Source: an uncultured Alphaproteobacteria bacterium (lineage in GTDB: Bacteria > Pseudomonadota > Alphaproteobacteria > CAAHEQ01 > UBA3637). Taken from it: 64,000 bases of DNA. Each line of letters starts with the position of its first letter. The stretch's first letter is position 1. The notes under the pieces are model-generated. The model was not told the origin of the DNA, did no database searches, and saw only the letters and a list, made by a program, of their open reading frames with translations. Positions 29,459 through 41,242 of the stretch are shown here, one piece after another. Location: assembly GCA_944391735.1 (NCBI GenBank), contig CALXUR010000003.1:12287-76286 (forward strand). Reading direction: 5' to 3'. Position numbers and translations under genes: made by a program.

Positions 29459-30511
29459 TTATCTGCCCCGGGATTGAAGCAGTTTTGCCATAGAAAAGGC
29501 TTTATTATGAATTTGCTGTGTTTCTTTATCTAAAGTGGTATTATCTGTTTTATGAATACCCGTTTTATCCATTAGCTTTTGTTCCATATATGCTTGGATA
29601 CCATATGCATGTGTTTCCGAAGGCAACATCACATATAAATCCTTATAATTTTCAGATGTTTTATTGTCCAAGAGGTCTTCATAAACAGCGATATTTTCAA
29701 TATTACAGTCAAAAATACGGTTAATTAGAGGGTCGTCAAATCTTTTTTGGTGTTGTCGATGGTGTGTCCCCTCATGAAATAAAACGGATACCGCAAAAAA
29801 GTTATCACAATTTTGTAGCCGTTCTTCATTAAAATAAATTTTCCCCTTTTGATAATAGGCAGCATAGATGTGTGTATCTTCAGGCAGTCTATTTTTATGT
29901 TGTTGTGCTTTTTCTTGTTCCGGTGTGAAAAATTCAATTTCGGGTGCGGTTCCATAGATGTGTTTAAAAATTTCAGCGGCTTGTTTTAGTACTTCTTTTT
30001 TTTCCGGTAAAGATGTTTTATTCCAATTTTTTAATTTATTTGTTATTTGAGGTTGGGCGGCAATAAGGGTGGCATAGCTGTCGGCCAACTTTTTTTCATG
30101 ATCCCAAAAACGATTTGGAAAAGTCATTGTAAATAAACATATCCTTAAATTCTTATCATTTTTACGACAAATCCGTATTAAATCATCTAGTGTTTGTCGC
30201 CTTGGGAACAGCGCTTCTAAATAGTCCAATTTCTGTTCTAAAGATAATGTGGTGATTTGAGTCGGAGTTAGCGTTGAAAATTGTTCGACTTTTTGTAATT
30301 TAAGCTGATGATGGAGTCGATAGGTTTGAGCGTAGGTTTGAATTAGTATATTAAAGTCTTGTTGGGATATATTTTCCAACCGATTGTTTTGAATAATTTG
30401 ATTAATGCGTTGTGTATCTTTATCGGAAAAGGGAGTAAAACAGACACTCCCATCAGTATTCATCGTGATTTTACATCGATCCATTAAATCTTCAAATTCA
30501 TTAATATTCAT
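29459..30511 (-). CDS. Hypothetical protein with an HExxH (HEGTHH) zinc-metalloprotease-like motif. Low GC, probably horizontally acquired; candidate secreted effector.
   Basis: 350 aa with no signal peptide. Markedly more AT-rich than its neighbours. LFHEGTHHRQH motif. Lies between the ldcA remnant and the 3' end of a tRNA. Confidence 0.45.
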   Translation of the reverse strand: MNINEFEDLMDRCKITMNTDGSVCFTPFSDKDTQRINQIIQNNRLENISQQDFNILIQTYAQTYRLHHQLKLQKVEQFSTLTPTQITTLSLEQKLDYLEALFPRRQTLDDLIRICRKNDKNLRICLFTMTFPNRFWDHEKKLADSYATLIAAQPQITNKLKNWNKTSLPEKKEVLKQAAEIFKHIYGTAPEIEFFTPEQEKAQQHKNRLPEDTHIYAAYYQKGKIYFNEERLQNCDNFFAVSVLFHEGTHHRQHQKRFDDPLINRIFDCNIENIAVYEDLLDNKTSENYKDLYVMLPSETHAYGIQAYMEQKLMDKTGIHKTDNTTLDKETQQIHNKAFSMAKLLQSRGR

Positions 30512-33460: not shown

Positions 33461-33536
<76 letters not shown>

Positions 33537-33573: not shown

Positions 33574-33657
33574 GGAAGTTAAGCTTTTTTGACAGATCAA
33601 GCTGAAAAGAGATTATTTTTATAAGTCGTTCTATTTAAAATAAAAGATAAAATTTAT

Positions 33658-33686
33658 TTGACTTTGGTATTGAACGAACGTATAAC
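33658..33686 (+). promoter_or_regulatory. Promoter of island gene 33706
   Basis: TTGACT, 17 nt spacer, TATAAC. The same element recurs at 34588-34616. Confidence 0.5.
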
Positions 33687-33705
33687 GGATAAAAAGGGAT
33701 AAGTC

Positions 33706-34158
33706 ATGAAATATATTCTGATTTTAACATTACTGTTGATGAGTGTATCCGCTGGTGCGGTGACAGTTGAGGATATGTCAGAAGCACGAAAGCAAGCAGA
33801 GTTTGAGGCACGTGCGATAGATAAGATTTGTTGGAACGAGGCATTTAAAGATAAGCCGGATACGACAAGAGCTATGTGGGCGGCAGCGGTGCGGAACACA
33901 GACTGCTTATATAAGGAGATAGAAAAACAGGTAAAGCTGGCTTTTTTACCACAGGATCATGAAAAGATGATGGTGTTAATTCATGCAGCCGGTAAAAATA
34001 TAGCGGATATTTACTTTGAGATGCATACCAGTAACCGGTATTGTTACGGGCATTGCGGAACTATGAATAACATCACGCATACGGTGAATGAAATGGAGTT
34101 TTTAATTGGCGTGTTAACAGATTTAATTTTGATGAACAGGATAAAAGACAGTGTATGA
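33706..34158 (+). CDS. Small secreted Cys-containing protein (150 aa), copy 1. Candidate periplasmic immunity protein or lysozyme inhibitor.
   Basis: Signal peptide MKYILILTLLLMSVSAGA. Conserved Cys including CYGHCGTM. Paralogous to 34635..35087. Convergent with a GH108 toxin remnant. Confidence 0.5.
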   Translation: MKYILILTLLLMSVSAGAVTVEDMSEARKQAEFEARAIDKICWNEAFKDKPDTTRAMWAAAVRNTDCLYKEIEKQVKLAFLPQDHEKMMVLIHAAGKNIADIYFEMHTSNRYCYGHCGTMNNITHTVNEMEFLIGVLTDLILMNRIKDSV

Positions 34159-34207
34159 TTATAATAAATATATTTTCGGGAGGGGTTAAACCTCCCGAAT
34201 GAACTAT

Positions 34208-34530
34208 TTACTATTTAATTAAAGATTTTTCAAATCGTTTTTTCCAACCATATCCGAATTTAATTTGATTGGATATGGGTTGTTTTTTTATGTCAGAAAA
34301 ACGTTGTCGGACAATATAATTGTTGACGTCTTTCATTTGTTGAAGAGTTAAATTGTTCAGGGCATTAATAGTTTGAGATCCCATGACACCGTCTTCATCC
34401 ACTTGAAAAGAAGTGAATTGATTAATACCTTGTTGCGCCCATTGGATCGGCTCTGTCAGCGACAACGGCAGGTATTGATTCGCATTAACCGTTAAGGCGG
34501 GTTGCGGAATGGTTGGTTTTGATAGATAAA
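34208..34530 (-). pseudogene. 3' remnant of a GH108/PG_binding_3 toxin gene. Track ORF 34211..34465 covers the C-terminal 84 aa.
   Basis: About 88% DNA identity to the 3' end of 35098..36360. Upstream remnant sequence 34466-34530 (ggtattgattcgcattaaccgttaaggcgggttgcggaatggt) matches an internal part of the full gene near 35943-36010. This indicates an internal deletion. Confidence 0.55.
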
Positions 34531-34587
34531 GCTAAAAAGAAATCGTCTTTATAAACCGGTATATTGAAAATAAAAGATACAAATTAT

Positions 34588-34616
34588 TTGACTTTGATGT
34601 TGAACGAAAGTATAAC
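34588..34616 (+). promoter_or_regulatory. Promoter of island gene 34635, a duplicate of 33658-33686
   Basis: TTGACT, 17 nt spacer, TATAAC. Confidence 0.5.
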
Positions 34617-34634
34617 GGATAAAAAAGGCGAGTC

Positions 34635-35087
34635 ATGAAATATATTCTGATTTTAACATTACTGTTGATGAGTGTATCCGTTGATGCAGCGGAAAAGGAA
34701 GAAGTGTGTGACACGTTGGAATGTGCGAAGGCTCAAGCGCATCACATTGGAAAAACGTGTTGGGATGAGGCGTATAAGGATGATCCGTATTCGACAGCGG
34801 AGATGCGCCGAGCCGATTTTAATGCAAATGATTGCATGTATAAAGCGGTGGAGGAGCAAGTCAGGCAAGCTTTTGAACCGACCGAGCAAGAGCAGGTTTT
34901 AGAATGGATTATGACAGGGTGGCGTGGGGTCAGTCAAACATACTGGATGATTTTTAACAATAATAAATATTGTTACGGTCGTTGTGGAACAATGCAACAT
35001 TTACGAAATACTCCTTTTGAAGCTCAATTTTTAGAGCAGGTTTTGGCTTGGTTAATTCATGCAAATGCAAAGAAAGGGAGTATTTAA
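34635..35087 (+). CDS. Small secreted Cys-containing protein (150 aa), copy 2
   Basis: Same signal peptide as copy 1. CYGRCGTM. Convergent with the intact GH108 toxin gene. Confidence 0.5.
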   Translation: MKYILILTLLLMSVSVDAAEKEEVCDTLECAKAQAHHIGKTCWDEAYKDDPYSTAEMRRADFNANDCMYKAVEEQVRQAFEPTEQEQVLEWIMTGWRGVSQTYWMIFNNNKYCYGRCGTMQHLRNTPFEAQFLEQVLAWLIHANAKKGSI

Positions 35088-35097
35088 CTCCCTTCCT

Positions 35098-36360
35098 TTA
35101 TTTGATAAAGTGACGTTCGCTTCTGGTTGTCAGACCTTTTCGGCGGGTTCCGTATCCGGCTGGGTTTGCGTCAGCGTATTGGTTTATTTGTCCGGAACGT
35201 TGTCGGACAATATAATTGTTGACTTCTTTCATTTGTTGAAGGGTCAAATTATTAAGGGCATTAATGGTTTGTGATCCCATGATGCCGTCTTCATCTACTT
35301 GAAAAGAAGTCAATTGATTAATACCTTGTTGCACCCATTGAATCGGCTCTATCGGAGAATGGTTTGCCAAAAGGTCAAATAAGGTCTTGGCTAACTTTTC
35401 ATTTTTAATTTCTTCAATGCGGTAGGCATCGTAATAATCCATTTTATAAATGGTTGTTGCCTGATCCCTTGTTAAATCCTTAACGGTAGCGGGATATGTT
35501 CTTCCCAAAGTCGGATGGGCCGCTTTAAAACGATTTAATGAACCTTGAATAACACCCATATTGGTCGGTTGATCTATTCTAGTCGGTCTATCTTCATAAC
35601 CGCCCTCTTCCTGATAGACAGATGACAACAGGCGATCAAAACGGGTGGTGGAACCGTAGCCCAAAAGTTCATTCATCTTATCGACCGTCAGGTCATCGGG
35701 GCGCAAAATGCCGGTTCTATCCAAACCGTTATCTCGTTGAAAAGCCGAAATGCCGTCAAACAGTTGTTGGTCGGGATAGGGGGTTATTCCCTCTGACTCC
35801 GGCAGGTAATAGCCCAAGTCGTATAAGGCCTCTTTTGTCGAGATAACGTCTGTGGGAGAGGCGAAAGAGGGGCTGACGGATTGTGTGATAAAAAAGCCCT
35901 GCGCGTCGGTATTGTTATCTGTTAAAAAGTTCGGTTTTATCGGTGGTAACGACGGGTATTGATTTGCATCAACCGTTACGGACGGTTGCGAAATGGTCGG
36001 CTTTTGATAATAATTCGGCGCGGGCAGAGAGTTTAAATCCCGAAAGGCTCGATTTAACAATTTTTCGTTTTCTCGGGCATTTTTTTCGGCACGTTTGCTT
36101 TGGCTTGTTTCTTCCCTATTTTTTTGCTGTGCTTCTTTTTCATCATGGTCTTGTCCGCAGATGCGGTTATAGGGTTTGACATGCTTACCCTTTCGCATAT
36201 GGCCGGGAACGTGAATGAGTTTTTGGCAATGTCCGGATGTGTCGTGTCCTTTGGAACTGAGTTGTCGCTTCGGGATAATTTGTGCCTGTCCCGTGAAAGA
36301 GCTCAGGTTTTGTAATATTTTGGCGATATTGATAAATGCGGTAAGAGATTTTTGATCCAT
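35098..36360 (-). CDS. Polymorphic toxin-like protein: conserved His/Cys-rich N-terminal domain, S/T/P/Q-rich linker, GH108 lysozyme-like domain and PG_binding_3
   Basis: N-terminal GHDTSGHCQKLIHVPGHMRKGKHVKPYNRICGQDHDEKEAQQKN is shared with 38438..38773, 40284..41024 and 36841..37245. The C-terminal half has the EEGGYEDR...DQPTNMGVIQ catalytic block of glycoside hydrolase family 108 and a DEDGIMGSQTINALN PG-binding segment. Start taken as Met18 of the track ORF (RBS AAAGGAAAAGC). Confidence 0.6.
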   Translation of the reverse strand: MDQKSLTAFINIAKILQNLSSFTGQAQIIPKRQLSSKGHDTSGHCQKLIHVPGHMRKGKHVKPYNRICGQDHDEKEAQQKNREETSQSKRAEKNARENEKLLNRAFRDLNSLPAPNYYQKPTISQPSVTVDANQYPSLPPIKPNFLTDNNTDAQGFFITQSVSPSFASPTDVISTKEALYDLGYYLPESEGITPYPDQQLFDGISAFQRDNGLDRTGILRPDDLTVDKMNELLGYGSTTRFDRLLSSVYQEEGGYEDRPTRIDQPTNMGVIQGSLNRFKAAHPTLGRTYPATVKDLTRDQATTIYKMDYYDAYRIEEIKNEKLAKTLFDLLANHSPIEPIQWVQQGINQLTSFQVDEDGIMGSQTINALNNLTLQQMKEVNNYIVRQRSGQINQYADANPAGYGTRRKGLTTRSERHFIK

Positions 36361-36495
36361 GCTTTTCCTTTCAATAAAAAAAGCCCGCCGCAAGAGATTC
36401 CGGACAGGCATAAAAAAATCGGGATATACTTGTCCCGATTAACTAAAAAAAGTATAGCATAAATTAAATGAAAAGTCAAGGAATATTTTCCTATT
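36361..36495. repeat. Conserved 5' leader/promoter element of the toxin genes, copy R1. Other copies: 37261-37388, 38774-38918, 41025-41165.
   Basis: AATAAAAAAGCC(C/T)G(C/T)CG..AGATTCCGGACAGGCATAAAAAAATCGGGATAC recurs immediately upstream of every toxin start codon. R1 and R4 also share AAAAGTCAAGGAATATTTTCCTAT. Confidence 0.6.
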
Positions 36496-36556: not shown

Positions 36557-36796
36557 CTATTTCGGGTTTACGGGATAGAAACGGCATATTTGTTTTTCTA
36601 TATCCCAAACACCTCGGCCATAGCAAGTGTCTTCATTAACAACGCATTCAGTTCCCCAATCACAGTGCGCAAATATAAATCCCTTGGGACAAATACCACC
36701 CGAGAGACAATCATCCTCCCGTAAATCTATATAAGTCATAAGAGCGACTGTCACTATGGTAAAAACTGTCAAACACATAAAAAAGAAAAACTTCAT
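36557..36796 (-). CDS. Small secreted Cys-rich protein (79 aa, 8 Cys). Candidate immunity protein downstream of the decayed toxin 36841..37245.
   Basis: Signal peptide MKFFFFMCLTVFTIVTVAL. Same strand as the toxin remnant and directly 3' of it. Confidence 0.4.
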   Translation of the reverse strand: MKFFFFMCLTVFTIVTVALMTYIDLREDDCLSGGICPKGFIFAHCDWGTECVVNEDTCYGRGVWDIEKQICRFYPVNPK

Positions 36797-36840: not shown

Positions 36841-37245
36841 CTAATATTTCAAAGGTAAGCCTGATGGTCTGAAAATGCCACAGCTTTCACTTAATGTTTT
36901 TCCTTTATTGGCTCCCCGCAATCCGGAAATATTTGCTTTCATGTCAGATAAACTTTCATTAGGACCATATTTAAAAACATCTTTACTTTCTTTTAACAGA
37001 GATAACAGAAGGCCTACTAGGTTACCGTAGACACCCCGTGAACCGGCTTCATAGTTTGCTTTACAGTGAAAGTATTTATCTCCGCCGATAAAATTAGTTT
37101 TATTCATATCATTAAAATTTCGGATGAAATCTTTGAGCGGTGCAAATAGTCCGGTCGTTGTTTTTTCCGCTTGATTTTTTTATTGAGCTTCTTTTTCGTC
37201 GGGTGCTGGCACACCGATTGCATTTCCGATGGGTTCTGTTTCCAT
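36841..37245 (-). pseudogene. Decayed toxin paralog: the N-terminal domain carries an internal in-frame deletion and a CAA-to-TAA nonsense codon (37180-37182). The C-terminal small domain is of unknown function.
   Basis: METEPIGNAIGVPAPDE joins directly to KEAQ(*)KNQAEK, with the central roughly 55 codons missing. The same frame continues into track ORF 36841..37107 (FIGGDKYFHCKANYEAGSRG...). Confidence 0.5.
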
Positions 37246-37478
37246 GATCTTTTTCCTTTCAATAAAAAAGCCCGCCGCAAGAGATTCCGGACAGGCATAA
37301 AAAAATCGGGATACACTTTTATTTTAAAAAACTTGTTTTTTACTTTTGAAATTGATAGAATTGTATAAAGGTTTAAAGAGGATATCTAATGAAATATGTA
37401 TTTGGAATTATTTTGGGATTGTTTTTGGTTTCTTGTCAAACACAAGAACCGGTTCAATTTAAAAATCCGATTTTTTAT
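37195..37478. repeat. Duplicated module of about 285 bp: toxin N-terminus, leader, divergent intergenic region and lipoprotein N-terminus. Second copy at 38725-39008.
   Basis: Near-identical stretches from CGTCG(G/A)GTG..CACCGATTGCATTTCCGATGGGTTCTGTTTCCATGATCTTTTTCC through ...CAATTTAAAAATCCGATTTT. Confidence 0.6.
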
Positions 37479-37772
37479 GAAACACTTTATCCTATTTCCA
37501 AGACGGTTCGGGAGACGCGATTGACACCGACGAAGATATATGTGAATGCATTTATTTCGGAAAAAGAGTGTCGATTGCTAAAGAATACCGAGACCGTTTT
37601 GGAGTTTTCCTGTGAATACGACCATCCGTTCAGCGGGCATTTTTCGGATGTATTTTATCGGTATGTTATTGAAGGGGAGGAATCAAAATATACCAATTGT
37701 TTGATTGTTAGGTTGGAAATGCCCGGTGGAACAGCCTGGTTTTGTATTCACCGAGAAAAACCACAGGATTAA
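37389..37772 (+). CDS. Lipoprotein (127 aa), island-associated. Candidate immunity protein.
   Basis: MKYVFGIILGLFLVSCQTQEPVQFKNPIF lipobox. The N-terminal 30 aa are identical to 38919..39389. Convergent with the lysozyme-like toxin domain gene. Confidence 0.55.
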   Translation: MKYVFGIILGLFLVSCQTQEPVQFKNPIFYETLYPISKTVRETRLTPTKIYVNAFISEKECRLLKNTETVLEFSCEYDHPFSGHFSDVFYRYVIEGEESKYTNCLIVRLEMPGGTAWFCIHREKPQD

Positions 37773-37829: not shown

Positions 37830-38773
37830 CTATTTGTTTCTATATTTACAAGGAGAATAAAACCATCCATTGATTAATGGAATTTCCCGTAAAGTATTTC
37901 TGGCCCAATCATTGCGGGTTTTTCCGACCTGATATCTATTTACCTCGTTAATCATTTGAAAAACATTTTTTTTGTTAACGCCCTCAAAGAAAAAATGCCA
38001 TTTTTCAGAATTAAAATTGTGCCCCATATTATATTGCATGTCTAATAAAACCATTTGTAGCGTTCTGGGATATGTTTCAAATGCCGGAAATTTTGATTCT
38101 AATTCAGCTAAGTCATTTCCCAAATGTTCCATTGTTTTATCAATAATTGTGTGTTCGGATAGAGTTAGTTCTTGGGAATGATTTGTTACACGGAAGTCTT
38201 CTGAAGTATAATTTTTTCCAAATATTTTCTGTTTTTGAAAATCCAAGAGTCGTTTATATTCGCCTAGTTTTTGCTCGGTTGTAGCCTCTTTTCCTTGATA
38301 CATCCAGGGGAGTGATATAAAGGTTTTTTGATTCGGAATATATAACCCGCTGGCGGCTGTTATCTTTCCCAATGTATCCAAATAGGCATAATTGATTGAT
38401 CCTTCATGTTTTTTTAGATATGGCCAGTATGCTTGAATTAATTCATCATATTTTCGTTGTTTTTTTTAGATACAGTTTCTTTTTGAGAAAGTGTTTCTTT
38501 GTTAACTTTTTCCGCTTGGTTTTCTTGTTGAGCTTCTTTTTCGTCATGGTCACGGCCACAGGTGCGGTTATAGGCGTTGACGGGTTTGCCTTCGCGGCTA
38601 TGAGCGGGAACATGTATCATTTTTTGACAATGCCCCGATGTGTCGTGTCCGTTTTGAGAATTATCGCTGTTTCCGAACAGAAAAGCGAATAGATTTTGTC
38701 GGTTATTATTGACTTGGTTGTTTTCGTCGAGTGTCGGTACACCGATTGCATTTCCGATGGGTTCTGTTTCCAT
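37830..38773 (-). pseudogene. Toxin paralog split by a frameshift at a T8/A8 homopolymer: N-terminal conserved domain (38438..38773) and T4-lysozyme-like C-terminal domain (37830..38381)
   Basis: The N-domain ORF stops 20 codons after the A8 run. The downstream ORF frame is open from immediately after the run. Inserting one A fuses them. The C-terminal domain has LLDMQYNMG...NRYQVGKTRNDWARNTL, resembling the phage/T4 lysozyme (GH24) C-terminal lobe. Confidence 0.55.
38460..38467. repeat. T8 homopolymer (A8 on the coding strand) at the frameshift site
   Basis: gttg-TTTTTTTT-agat. A +1 slippage restores a roughly 310-aa open reading frame. Confidence 0.6.
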
Positions 38774-38918
38774 GATCTTTTTCCCTTCAATAAAAAAAAG
38801 CCTGCCGCAAGAGATTCCGGACAGGCATAAAAAAATCGGGATACACTTTTATTTTAAAAAACTTGTTTTTTACTTTTGAAATTGATAGAATTGTATAAAG
38901 GTTTAAAGAGGATATCTA

Positions 38919-39389
38919 ATGAAATATGTATTTGGAATTATTTTGGGATTGTTTTTGGTTTCTTGTCAAACACAAGAACCGGTTCAATTTAAAAATCCGA
39001 TTTTTAATAAAAAACTAGAAGCTATTTCCAAAATTCTTAATGATGTAAAAATAACTCCGACAGAAATTATAGATCTAAAGGATCCGGAGGTATTACCGGC
39101 AACGTGTGAGTTATTGTCCGATGAAGGATATCGTATTATTATGAAGTGTGTGCAGCCCTATCGAACAATACCGGTGCAAACGGTGTATTACCGTTTTACA
39201 AATATGGGAAAATATGAACCATTCTATTCGTCAGAAAAAAATCTGTGTGAAATTCATCAGGAGCAATGTGATGATATGGATTTTCAAAATTTTTACTCTT
39301 GGGGTGTTTTTGTCGTTCGATTAAACGATGGGGAGGATTGTGGTCCTCAGATGCCTGAAGACCAACTCCCCGAATGGTTGATCAGGTAA
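38919..39389 (+). CDS. Lipoprotein (156 aa), island-associated. Candidate immunity protein.
   Basis: Lipobox LVSC. The C-terminal roughly 90 aa (ATCELLSDEGYRIIMKCVQPYRTIPVQTVYYRFTNMGKYEPFYSSEKNLCEIHQEQCDDMDFQNFYSWGVFVVRLNDGEDCGPQ) are identical to 39445..39912. Confidence 0.55.
   Translation: MKYVFGIILGLFLVSCQTQEPVQFKNPIFNKKLEAISKILNDVKITPTEIIDLKDPEVLPATCELLSDEGYRIIMKCVQPYRTIPVQTVYYRFTNMGKYEPFYSSEKNLCEIHQEQCDDMDFQNFYSWGVFVVRLNDGEDCGPQMPEDQLPEWLIR
39081..39350. repeat. 270-bp direct repeat at near-100% identity. Second copy at 39610-39879.
   Basis: Identical from GATCCGGAGGTATTACCGGCAACGTGTGAG through GAGGATTGTGGTCCTCAG. It encodes the shared C-terminal part of the two lipoproteins. Confidence 0.6.
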
Positions 39390-39444
39390 ATGTTATCTTC
39401 TATTTTATGATTGAGGTAATTATATAAAGTTTTAAAGAGAGTAT

Positions 39445-39912
39445 TTGATGAAGCATGTGTTCGGGGTTATTTTGAGTGTGTTCTTGGTTGCTTGTCAAAC
39501 GCAAGAAGCGGTTCAATTTAAAAACCCGGTTTTTAATAGAAAGTTGGCATCAAATGTGAGTATGGATTACGATATTGTGATAACGCCGAGAATCATGGTC
39601 ACTTTAAATGATCCGGAGGTATTACCGGCAACGTGTGAGTTATTGTCCGATGAAGGATATCGTATTATTATGAAGTGTGTGCAGCCCTATCGAACAATAC
39701 CGGTGCAAACGGTGTATTACCGTTTTACAAATATGGGAAAATATGAACCATTCTATTCGTCAGAAAAAAATCTGTGTGAAATTCATCAGGAGCAATGTGA
39801 TGATATGGATTTTCAAAATTTTTACTCTTGGGGTGTTTTTGTCGTTCGATTAAACGATGGGGAGGATTGTGGTCCTCAGGCACCTAAGGACCAACTTCCC
39901 GAATGGTTTTGA
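39445..39912 (+). CDS. Lipoprotein (155 aa), tandem paralog of 38919..39389 with a divergent N-terminal third
   Basis: MMKHVFGVILSVFLVACQTQEAVQFKNPVF lipobox. The C-terminus is identical to the upstream paralog. Confidence 0.55.
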   Translation: MMKHVFGVILSVFLVACQTQEAVQFKNPVFNRKLASNVSMDYDIVITPRIMVTLNDPEVLPATCELLSDEGYRIIMKCVQPYRTIPVQTVYYRFTNMGKYEPFYSSEKNLCEIHQEQCDDMDFQNFYSWGVFVVRLNDGEDCGPQAPKDQLPEWF

Positions 39913-39936: not shown

Positions 39937-40251
39937 TTAAAGAGTAAAAGCTAAATATATATTCAACCCGATAAAATACAAAAGCGGATAACTTAATATT
40001 ATAACGGATTGCCACGGTTGTTGGTGATGACGCAGTCGTGCATACCATAAACAAAGGATAATCAGTATTGCTTCGGTTAAGTTGACTACAGTATAGTTAA
40101 GGGGATGATGATACATCCAACCTAAATTATCCGCTTGCCAGGGTATTTCCGGATTGGCAATATCTTGGAAACACCCGATAAAGAGAAAGCCTGTCAGAAA
40201 GATATTAAAAGCGGCAAGTAAAAAAAATAGAATGCGTTGAATATATTTCAT
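39937..40251 (-). CDS. Small polytopic membrane protein (104 aa). Candidate immunity protein directly downstream of the Tlde1-like toxin.
   Basis: Three predicted TM segments. Same strand as 40284..41024, 32 nt downstream. Confidence 0.45.
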   Translation of the reverse strand: MKYIQRILFFLLAAFNIFLTGFLFIGCFQDIANPEIPWQADNLGWMYHHPLNYTVVNLTEAILIILCLWYARLRHHQQPWQSVIILSYPLLYFIGLNIYLAFTL

Positions 40252-40283: not shown

Positions 40284-41024
40284 CTAGTATTTAACTTGAA
40301 CAATAACATCATATCCATTATTTTGAAACCATTTTGCAAAATCAGCCATTGCCTTTGTTAGATCAATACATCCGGCAGAACCTGGCGTTAAGCCTCCATG
40401 AATAGAAAAATTATTTCTTCCATATAGATTAGTATCATTCGCTGGTGTTAACCAAATGCGTTGTTCTCCCCATGCAGCTGTTCCACCTCTCCACTGTCCG
40501 CCACCTATTGAAGACTTAAATTTTTGCCATGCTCCCAAATTTTCCCACTTTTGAAAATCGCTGATTTTTGCAACATAATTGTCTTCGGGAAGTGGACCAT
40601 AATTTTTTAAATCCTGATAATTTGGATGTTGAAAGCCCGGTCGTCCGGATACACCTTTCCATTCCTTAATAATTTCTCCATTTTCGTGCAGGGTAAGACT
40701 TTTACCATTAAAAGATAAATACTGCCCATTTTTTAGGTTTAATGGAGTATTCCATTGTGTATATGGATTATTTTTTTGTTGAGCCTCTTTTTCGTCGTGG
40801 TTACGGCCGCAGATGCGTTCATAGGCGTTGACGGGTTTGCCTTCGCGGCTATGAGCGGGAACATGTATCATTTTTTGACAATGCCCCGATGTGTCGTGTC
40901 CGTTTTGAGAATTGTCGCTGTTTCCGAACAGAAAAGCGAATAGATTTTGTTGACTGTTATTTCTCGGATTGTTTTCGTCGGGTGCTGGCACACCGATTGC
41001 ATTTCCGATGGATTGTGTTTCCAT
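40284..41024 (-). CDS. Polymorphic toxin-like protein: conserved His/Cys-rich N-terminal domain and Tlde1/DUF2778-like (YkuD L,D-transpeptidase-fold) C-terminal domain
   Basis: N-terminus METQSIGNAIGVPAPDENN...NGHDTSGHCQKMIHVPAHSREGKPVNAYERICGRNHDEKEAQQKN. C-terminus has ...GRPGFQHPNYQDLKNYGPLPEDNYV and FSIHGGLTPGSAGCIDL (His...SxGC catalytic motif of the YkuD/Tlde1 family). Confidence 0.6.
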   Translation of the reverse strand: METQSIGNAIGVPAPDENNPRNNSQQNLFAFLFGNSDNSQNGHDTSGHCQKMIHVPAHSREGKPVNAYERICGRNHDEKEAQQKNNPYTQWNTPLNLKNGQYLSFNGKSLTLHENGEIIKEWKGVSGRPGFQHPNYQDLKNYGPLPEDNYVAKISDFQKWENLGAWQKFKSSIGGGQWRGGTAAWGEQRIWLTPANDTNLYGRNNFSIHGGLTPGSAGCIDLTKAMADFAKWFQNNGYDVIVQVKY

Positions 41025-41242
41025 GGTCTTTTTCCTTTCAATAAAAAAGCCTGTCGGATCAGATTCCGAACAGGCATTAAAAAAATCGGGATACATTTAT
41101 CCCGATTAACTGAAAGATATCATATCATAAATCAGATTAAAAGTCAAGGAATATTTTCCTATAAATAGAAATATTTTCTTTATTGACTTTTGTCGGGAGG
41201 CGTGAAATACTGAACGAAAGTTGACGATGAAAGGAGAAGGTT

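Follow-up and report, generated by a model that had tools for sequence, protein, structure and literature searches.

Two cassettes and an intact gene for a putative GH108 toxin

We analysed a 64,000-nucleotide stretch of DNA from an uncultured Alphaproteobacteria bacterium (contig CALXUR010000003.1; the whole stretch is referred to as the window). It contains two homologous cassettes, at 33587-34530 and 34517-36013, each of which consists of a promoter, a gene for a small secreted protein, and the convergent 3' end of a GH108/PG_binding_3 toxin gene. The secreted-protein genes are called imm1 and imm2 here. The toxin gene of the second cassette, ToxA, is intact, and that of the first is a remnant. 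The features and their coordinates are collected in Table 1.

When the region was compared with itself by BLAST, three blocks of similarity were obtained: 33587-33758 against 34517-34687 (87%, E 1e-50), covering the promoter and signal peptide; 34300-34454 against 35196-35350 (92%, E 2e-58), covering the PG_binding_3 core; and 34464-34529 against 35948-36013 (84%, E 3e-12), an internal toxin segment. The homology of these blocks is far above chance. A reading made earlier from the sequence alone had proposed two homologous regions, each with a promoter, a secreted-protein gene and a facing toxin 3' end, and the three blocks confirm this. It had also placed a TTGACT-17-TATAAC promoter before both genes, which is indeed found at 33658-33686 (-35 TTGACT at 33658-33663, 17-nt spacer, -10 TATAAC at 33681-33686, ribosome-binding site (RBS) AAGGGA) and at 34588-34616 (-35 at 34588-34593, -10 at 34611-34616). 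The two promoter copies are 75-88% identical, and each is closer to a different relative.

The proteins encoded by imm1 and imm2 are 43% identical overall and 37% identical over the mature part. Their signal-peptide DNA is 96% identical over 57 nt (repeat family D11). The signal peptides had been described as identical; this holds for the first 15 residues, but the next few differ. The conserved Cys motifs CYGHCGTM and CYGRCGTM are both present, as had been noted. A profile of identity between the copies in 40-nt sliding windows gave a mosaic. The promoter and signal-peptide arm showed 75-100% identity and the PG_binding_3 core arm 85-98%, whereas values of 18-72%, mostly below 50%, were found over the mature part of the immunity protein and the final ~33 codons of the toxin. 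Such a collapse of identity indicates that the copies are diverged alleles and not recent duplicates.

Reading from its N-terminus, ToxA has the module GHDTSGHCQK...CG..HDEKEAQ, then a charged linker, then PG_binding_1 and the GH108 catalytic domain, and lastly a putative PG_binding_3 domain with a C-terminal tail that we call type 2. Its start follows the L001 gene call and P0002, and the protein has no signal peptide. Against Glyco_hydro_108 (PF05838) it scored 50.6 bits (cut-off 21.2), and it also matched PG_binding_1; against PG_binding_3 (PF09374) the score was 15.5 bits (cut-off 24.6), with only the first half of the profile aligned. The catalytic Glu motif E-G-G-Y is present as EEGGYED. 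ToxA matched the solved GH108 structures 7DNP, 2IS5 and 2IKB and that of TtsA (6V40), a PHROG endolysin model (E 2e-23) and, weakly, the NCBIfam model 'holin-associated N-acetylmuramidase' (56.8 bits; cut-off 240). A search of JGI metagenomes with an exact 25-nt toxin-core pattern found nothing. The alignment of ToxA with TtsA stops just before the variable tail, which places the tail at about the position of TtsA groove residues 164-167. It is the C-terminal domain that determines which substrate TtsA and Sen1395 act on, with groove residues 164-167 of 180 (PMC6996933).

ToxA is one of four peptidoglycan-targeting toxin genes (GH108, SAA-like, lysozyme-like and Tlde1) on the minus strand between 35098 and 41024. 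Together with the facing secreted-protein gene it forms the end of a 7.5-kb array, and the pair is the left end of an island that extends from the tRNA-Ala gene (33461-33536) to ~41.1 kb. Promoter, leader and a lineage-restricted N-terminal module are common to the four toxins, whose C-terminal domains differ. The shared module begins with METEPIGN... or MDQKSL..., followed by GHDTSGHCQKxIHVPxHxRxGKxVxxYxRxCGxxHDEKEAQ, and is also found in P0011, P0012 and P0015, each with a different C-terminus. A profile search with the module in 5.8 billion proteins gave only four very close relatives.

Copies of the toxin promoter/leader lie at 36361-36479 and 41025-41147 on the minus strand, with partial copies at 37243-37335 and 38774-38865. 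The leaders contain two tandem terminator-like hairpins (at 36383-36440 for ToxA and 41049-41107 for ToxD), each followed by a U-run, just upstream of the RBS, and have no match in Rfam. For the ToxD leader the folding z is -5.7, and paired changes distinguish its second hairpin from that of ToxA. Toxin expression may be controlled by antitermination.

The remnant in the first cassette is an open reading frame (ORF) of 106 codons (34211-34531, minus strand), in which 22 codons, corresponding approximately to toxin codons 116-137, are fused in frame to the last 84. It had been taken to hold the last ~110 codons plus an internal segment; the fusion is real, and at 84 + 22 codons it is slightly smaller than that. 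It scored 28.7 bits against PF09374 (cut-off 24.6) with no other Pfam match, and has no catalytic domain, start codon or promoter. The motif EEGGYED is absent, identity to the catalytic segment is 5%, and a stop codon lies just upstream of the 5' part. The in-frame deletion spans ~196 codons (~138-333), including PG_binding_1 and the GH108 catalytic domain, and lies between two TATCGG-like sites, such a sequence being present at the internal junction (~34457-34464). At its 5' end the remnant joins the left edge of promoter copy 2 at TTTTGATA, an 8-mer present in both parents (33589 and 36003); the junction microhomology, TTTTGAYA, is at 34517-34524. The suggestion of a recombined toxin remnant is upheld; the remnant is non-functional and its junctions lie at short microhomologies, a pattern that fits illegitimate recombination followed by microhomology deletion.

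A hairpin lies between the convergent genes of each cassette. The one in the first cassette is likely a bidirectional terminator, from its sequence, and that in the second runs over the 3' end of imm2, including its stop codon (35085-35087), and reaches almost to the stop codon of ToxA (35098-35100).

Table 1. Features of the toxin/immunity island (positions in the window)
Feature	Position	Strand	Basis
tRNA-Ala(CGC), left border of the island	33461-33536	+	ARAGORN
Promoter/leader copy 1, for imm1	33587-33705	+	read from sequence
imm1, type-1 150-aa secreted four-Cys protein	33706-34158	+	ORF
GC-rich hairpin between imm1 and remnant	34175-34199	.	terminator scan
Remnant 3' part: PG_binding_3 core and type-1 tail, 84 codons and stop	34211-34465	-	PF09374
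Remnant 5' part: 22 codons, ~116-137	34464-34531	-	self-BLAST to 35948-36013, protein alignment
Promoter/leader copy 2, for imm2	34517-34634	+	sequence, self-BLAST
imm2, type-2 150-aa secreted four-Cys protein	34635-35087	+	ORF
Hairpin between convergent imm2 and ToxA	35074-35094	.	terminator scan
ToxA, 420 aa	35098-36360	-	Pfam, PDB and PHROG matches
ToxA promoter TTGACT-17-TATACT (36479-36451) and leader	36361-36479	-	terminator scan; repeat families D7, D10
79-aa Cys-rich secreted protein gene, downstream of ToxB, same strand	36557-36796	-	translation
ToxB: short N-terminal module and SAA-like domain	36841-37245	-	Pfam SAA, E 5e-14
127-aa lipoprotein gene, convergent with ToxC	37389-37772	+	translation
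ToxC: N-terminal module and lysozyme-like domain, frameshifted	37830-38773	-	translation
Two tandem lipoprotein genes between ToxC and ToxD	38919-39389, 39445-39912	+	ORFs; repeat families D1, D3, D4
104-aa membrane protein gene	39937-40251	-	ORF
ToxD, intact: N-terminal module and Tlde1 L,D-transpeptidase-like domain	40284-41024	-	PF10908
ToxD leader and promoter	41025-41147	-	folding

Candidate immunity types, toxin tails and the 150-residue family

The window was compared with seven related strains (L002, L003, L022-L026). The immunity proteins are of two types; members of one type are 91-99% identical to each other, and identity across the types is ~42%. Two tail types were found for the toxins, which are 87-96% identical up to ...NNYIVRQR and unalignable after it. 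The simplest arrangement, imm2 followed by a toxin with tail 2, occurs in L022. In L003 the order is imm2, imm1, then a toxin with tail 1; in L002, L024 and L025 it is imm2, imm1, imm2, then a toxin with tail 2; and in L023 it is imm1, imm2, then a toxin with tail 2. L026 has imm1, imm2, and a toxin at the contig end, whose tail could not be read. The window itself carries imm1, the remnant with tail 1, the second promoter, imm2, and the toxin with tail 2.

Wherever it could be read, the type of the immunity gene adjacent to the toxin was the same as the type of the tail: type 2 in the window, L002, L022, L023, L024 and L025, and type 1 in L003. For L024, the contig holds only the last 69 toxin codons, which include the whole tail. 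This co-variation of tail and immunity type amounts to linkage only. L002, L003, L024 and L025 also possess extra immunity genes without a toxin of their own, forming immunity-only arrays, and the window is the only one of the compared set that keeps a toxin stump.

The product of imm2 is 97-99% identical to that of the toxin-adjacent gene in L002, L023, L024 and L025, and is presumed to be the cognate immunity protein for the intact ToxA. The product of imm1 shares 95-96% identity with the L002 and L003 proteins of type 1 and matches the family hidden Markov model (HMM) with E 2e-46. Compared with these two orthologues, imm1 gave a ratio of nonsynonymous to synonymous polymorphism (pN/pS) of 0.14-0.15; therefore, it is maintained under purifying selection. 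The remnant, which faces imm1, has a tail 100% identical to that of the intact L003 toxin. Since the matching toxin is not intact in the window, imm1 is a putative orphan immunity gene.

The 150-aa proteins define a family of their own. An exhaustive HMMER profile search gave 83 cluster representatives at E <= 1e-3, 23 of them at E <= 1e-10, and a word-indexed protein search with imm2 gave one close relative. The four Cys residues are kept in more than 90% of members, and the loop NKYCxxxCGTM is conserved. A hydrophobic N-terminal leader was seen in 67 of 80 members; the other 13 include fragments and possibly mis-called starts. Neither imm1 nor imm2 had a match in Pfam, NCBIfam or PHROGs, and a profile search against PDB sequences gave nothing relevant for the family. 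When the 80 members were scanned with Pfam, there were only six single-member matches at chance level, one of them a weak match to LprI. Inhibitors of the LprI/DUF1311 kind (PF07007) had been suggested for the two proteins; the profile search was run and the suggestion was not borne out, as neither protein matched at E <= 0.1, only one of the 80 relatives did so, weakly (E 3e-4), and no fold match was found.

An AlphaFold2 (AF2) model built from the 80-sequence alignment was a four-helix bundle, with a predicted local distance difference test (pLDDT) score of 94 and a predicted template-modelling score of 0.87, in which the conserved Cys loop sits between helices 3 and 4. An earlier AF2 model from a two-sequence alignment had a pLDDT of 77 and gave no useful fold matches. 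With the better model, Foldseek returned generic helical bundles only (best E 0.67 in PDB and 0.89 in BFVD). By the profile and fold searches run, the family is thus uncharacterised and not a member of LprI.

We also examined 19 loci outside the clade of the window (L004, L005-L021, L029), whose retrieval did not depend on the toxin, and scored their ORFs with the immunity-family and GH108 HMMs. One degenerate DNA pattern for NKYCxxxCGTM gave 17 genome loci, among which the family was confined to uncultured gut Alphaproteobacteria. A GH108 gene was beside a family member in 11 of the 19, and a tail-to-tail family member was present in all 11. In nine of these, a clear family member was directly tail-to-tail with the GH108 gene, 3-60 bp apart; in L009 and L010, the gene after GH108, read in the same direction, encodes a weakly matching member, and a clear one converges from farther out. 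Several of the loci are near-duplicates, so that they represent about five independent lineages. The GH108 proteins of these loci carry different, lineage-specific N-terminal modules, and here too the Tlde1 toxins of a lineage have the same module as its GH108 proteins. At E <= 1, Pfam gave nothing for three such modules. In L017 (15-655), an independent lineage, a family gene lies tail-to-tail with a GH108 stump (329-655, a 108-aa ORF) that has the PG_binding_3 end only, and the pair adjoins an unrelated 830-aa gene. All genome matches to the immunity motif were in uncultured alphaproteobacterial or proteobacterial metagenome-assembled genomes, and the named sources were the gut of human, mouse and roe deer. 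The earlier proposal of the 150-aa proteins as periplasmic immunity candidates thus gains from two results, the adjacency to GH108 and the agreement of immunity type with tail type.

It may be noted that the N-terminal module of the GH108 toxin in another lineage, MSKSIGKLLGG..., recurs in several proteins beside phage-like genes (L005 2909-3655, L020 499-1245, L007 2840-3652, L011 3707-4231 and 6784-7668). One of these proteins has a C-terminal IGLIAQEV motif of the tail-fibre type, which hints that this module may attach cargo to a phage-derived particle. In L006 (495-2385), two secreted proteins of ~152 aa are encoded on the opposite strand, one on either side of a 251-aa family member, and a similar arrangement occurs in L014, L015 and L018. 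The flanking proteins match the family HMM weakly (E 1e-4 to 1e-9), are without the CxxxCGTM loop, and have no GH108 gene nearby; they may constitute a sister family.

Interpretation and alternatives

We consider it probable (roughly 0.7) that a chromosomal polymorphic-toxin island of an uncultured gut alphaproteobacterium has its distal end in this region, with the muramidase ToxA paired with imm2 as its cognate periplasmic immunity protein, two specificity types, and a displaced orphan module. The linkage to GH108 genes and the pairing of tail and immunity types make cognate periplasmic immunity the best reading of the genes. The island has a conserved toxin N-terminus with alternative C-termini, an adjacent and co-varying immunity gene, and displaced cassettes, which are the marks of a polymorphic-toxin locus.

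In such a locus, ToxA would act as an exported antibacterial muramidase that cuts the glycan strands of competitors. As it has no signal peptide and carries an N-terminal module common to the array toxins, it is most likely exported by a route that the module specifies, and it may be a colicin-like diffusible bacteriocin or an effector that depends on contact. The imm2 protein, made from its own promoter, would be exported by Sec to the periplasm, where it would bind and block incoming or leaked ToxA. The two population types differ sharply only in the last ~33 residues of the toxin and in the mature immunity protein. Because the genes converge, these variable parts adjoin each other, and they stand between two conserved arms, one formed by the promoter with the signal peptide and one by the PG_binding_3 core. 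The tail would be the specificity determinant, recognised by variable helices of the immunity protein, whose conserved disulfide-stapled loop would face the catalytic cleft. The type-1 module (imm1 and the type-1 toxin 3' end) would have been displaced outward by the type-2 module, joined to it at the 8-bp microhomology; the displaced toxin would have been truncated at its 5' end and would then have lost its catalytic part by the in-frame microhomology deletion. The imm1 gene probably serves as orphan immunity against the type-1 toxin of co-resident strains.

Some observations weigh against this interpretation. No secretion-system genes are present in the 64-kb window, and with Pfam no recognised trafficking or secretion domain was found in the N-terminal modules. 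Eight of the 19 loci outside the clade have no adjacent GH108 gene and are immunity-only clusters, some of them near phage-like genes. Only two specificity haplotypes were available, so that the pairing rests on few independent events and could reflect physical linkage and not molecular recognition. As the structural searches returned generic folds only, the predicted structure adds no functional support. Moreover, the promoter copies are only 75-88% identical, and more recombination events took place than a simple model would have.

The cassettes had been described as a tandem duplication. The repeat is real, and a plain in-situ duplication followed by decay, with imm1 and imm2 as redundant paralogues and the remnant as a degraded duplicate of the resident toxin, would explain the head-to-tail layout, the near-identical signal-peptide DNA and the microhomology at the junction, which is as expected from illegitimate recombination. 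It does not account for mature proteins that share so little, for toxin tails that cannot be aligned, or for purifying selection on imm1. Both types are, moreover, conserved alleles, 95-99% identical in other strains, and the remnant tail is that of the intact L003 toxin. A simple recent duplication is rejected on these allele data, and duplication with decay is improbable; the remnant and imm1 are instead the displaced module of the other allele, which is intact in L003.

The 150-aa proteins could otherwise inhibit lysozymes in general, as LprI, Ivy and MliC do, and be directed against those of the host or of foreign origin. That they are small, disulfide-rich and periplasmic suits this role, as do the single weak LprI match among the relatives and the family members that have no GH108 neighbour. 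The absence of any Pfam or NCBIfam match for either protein, the lack of a structural match to solved inhibitors, the tight and repeated linkage to GH108 toxin genes and the consistent allele pairing make it improbable. It is likewise improbable that the GH108 gene is a phage- or gene transfer agent-derived endolysin, or a TtsA-like muramidase of type 10 secretion, with the 150-aa protein as its periplasmic regulator. The holin-associated and PHROG endolysin matches, the place of TtsA among the closest solved relatives, and the phage-like genes near some family members are in its favour, but the window has no holin, spanin or phage structural genes. An N-terminal module and leader common to Tlde1, lysozyme-like and SAA-like genes in one array make a polymorphic-toxin pattern, in which ToxA shares, and the orphan immunity arrays and toxin stumps fit interbacterial conflict. 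A polymorphic toxin/immunity locus continues to be the preferred reading.

A fuller version of it can be offered only tentatively, and we regard it as doubtful that all its parts hold together. In this version the ~33-residue tail would be the end of the PG_binding_3 groove and form one co-swapped cassette with the mature immunity protein, and the convergent layout would exist to set the variable parts side by side between recombination arms. A nearly invariant, disulfide-stapled NKYCxxxCGTM loop would block the conserved cleft of GH108, with the tail recognised by variable helices, the His/Cys-rich N-terminal module would mark an undescribed delivery route, and the leader terminators would gate expression.

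The kind of locus is known, namely a polymorphic toxin/immunity locus with a displaced orphan module. In colicin M/Cmi and colicin B/Cbi, a downstream immunity gene on the opposite strand with its own promoter is the standard layout (PMC8469651, PMC5821083), and the immunity gene here has the same position and orientation and likewise a promoter of its own. The two systems would also have in common a modular cell-wall toxin that acts from the periplasmic side, with a C-terminal killing domain, and a periplasm-facing immunity protein. However, the catalytic domain here is a GH108 muramidase, where colicin M has a lipid II phosphatase; the immunity protein does not resemble YebF; and the present locus is chromosomal, alphaproteobacterial, and inside a multi-toxin array. 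The convergent arrangement had been called unusual for effector/immunity pairs. This is so with respect to type VI secretion (T6SS), contact-dependent inhibition (CDI) and Rhs, but not for the colicins just mentioned, and within the 150-aa family the arrangement is the rule.

A conserved N-terminus with variable C-termini is a likeness to CdiA-CT/CdiI, Rhs orphan modules and polymorphic toxins (PMC3482391). Displaced C-terminal fragments with immunity genes distal to the full-length gene, and extra immunity genes in strains, are also features in common with CDI and Rhs. Here, in contrast, the swap unit is ~33 toxin residues plus the immunity gene and not a whole toxin domain, the genes converge and are not co-directional, and no known trafficking domain was found. 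Unlike in CDI and Rhs, the displaced fragment is without a catalytic domain and cannot by itself restore a working toxin.

ToxA resembles TtsA and Sen1395 (PDB 6V40, 6V3Z) in having a GH108 catalytic domain followed by PG_binding_3, the latter a partial, below-cut-off match in ToxA. TtsA, however, serves export of typhoid toxin in its own cell and has no immunity partner, whereas ToxA has ~245 extra N-terminal residues and belongs to a toxin array.

The Tlde1 domain is otherwise known from T6SS. ToxD shares this domain, a peptidoglycan target and the logic of periplasmic immunity with Tlde1/Tldi1, a Salmonella T6SS pair. In the window, by contrast, no T6SS genes were seen among the flanking genes, no MIX, FIX or PAAR marker domains were found, and the N-terminal module is unrelated to those markers. 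As to the N-terminal TonB or Tol box of colicin-like bacteriocins, inspection of the N-termini (METEPIGN..., MDQKSL...) by eye, without a dedicated search, showed no clear ETxxV-type box, nor was a lysis gene noticed.

In the Ivy lysozyme inhibitors, a disulfide-constrained CKPHDC loop plugs the active site of lysozyme. The 150-aa proteins are likewise small and periplasmic, with a near-invariant Cys-x3/4-Cys loop (NKYCxxxCGTM) that could occlude a conserved active site. There is no relation in sequence or fold, Ivy being alpha/beta and the 150-aa protein an all-helical bundle, and loop plugging is suggested here by analogy only.

What appears to be new is the immunity family, the use of GH108 as an interbacterial toxin domain with a small swap unit of tail plus immunity gene, the consistently convergent layout, and a putative N-terminal delivery module. 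An unannotated periplasmic family of at least 83 sequence clusters would thereby be identified as likely immunity partners of GH108 muramidase toxins. If inhibition of GH108 enzymes by the 150-aa proteins is borne out, they would form a new muramidase-inhibitor class, with a bearing on phage lysins and on secretion muramidases of the TtsA type. The locus also offers a natural two-allele system, in which a ~33-residue tail and an immunity protein change together and immunity specificity could be tested with chimeras. It further suggests that uncultured gut Alphaproteobacteria carry multi-toxin islands aimed at the cell wall.

Other genes of the island and its surroundings

ToxB has an internal stop at ~37180-37182, after the N-terminal module; the ToxB of L003 is longer, at 134 aa. 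The intact homologue of the frameshifted ToxC is P0012 (302 aa). The ToxC C-terminal domain has no sequence match in Pfam, PHROG or PDB, and a PDB sequence search with P0012 gave nothing. The two lipoprotein genes and the membrane protein gene between ToxC and ToxD are candidate immunity genes.

The three lipoprotein genes share a near-identical promoter and lipoprotein signal (37264-37501, 38794-39031 and 39403-39542), two of these copies being 97-98% identical. In its mature part the protein encoded at 37389-37772 differs, and the other two genes are a tandem pair with 96% identity over 300 nt. They mirror the design of imm1 and imm2, with a conserved 5' arm and a variable body, and converge on ToxC and ToxD.

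At the left border, the tRNA-Ala flank is 99.5% conserved in L003. Rfam scores the tRNA-Ala gene (33461-33536) as a sub-threshold tmRNA (39.5 bits against a cut-off of 47); ARAGORN calls a plain tRNA-Ala(CGC), so that the tmRNA label arises artefactually from clan competition. Housekeeping genes make up the remainder of the window, among them those for SecY, GyrA/ParC, a MurD-like protein, RlmN, S1 and Era. Beside a tRNA-Met gene, at 29459-30511 on the minus strand, lies a gene for a 350-aa protein with an HEGTHH motif and no match in Pfam or NCBIfam. It is absent from L022 at that position and is found in most of the related strains.

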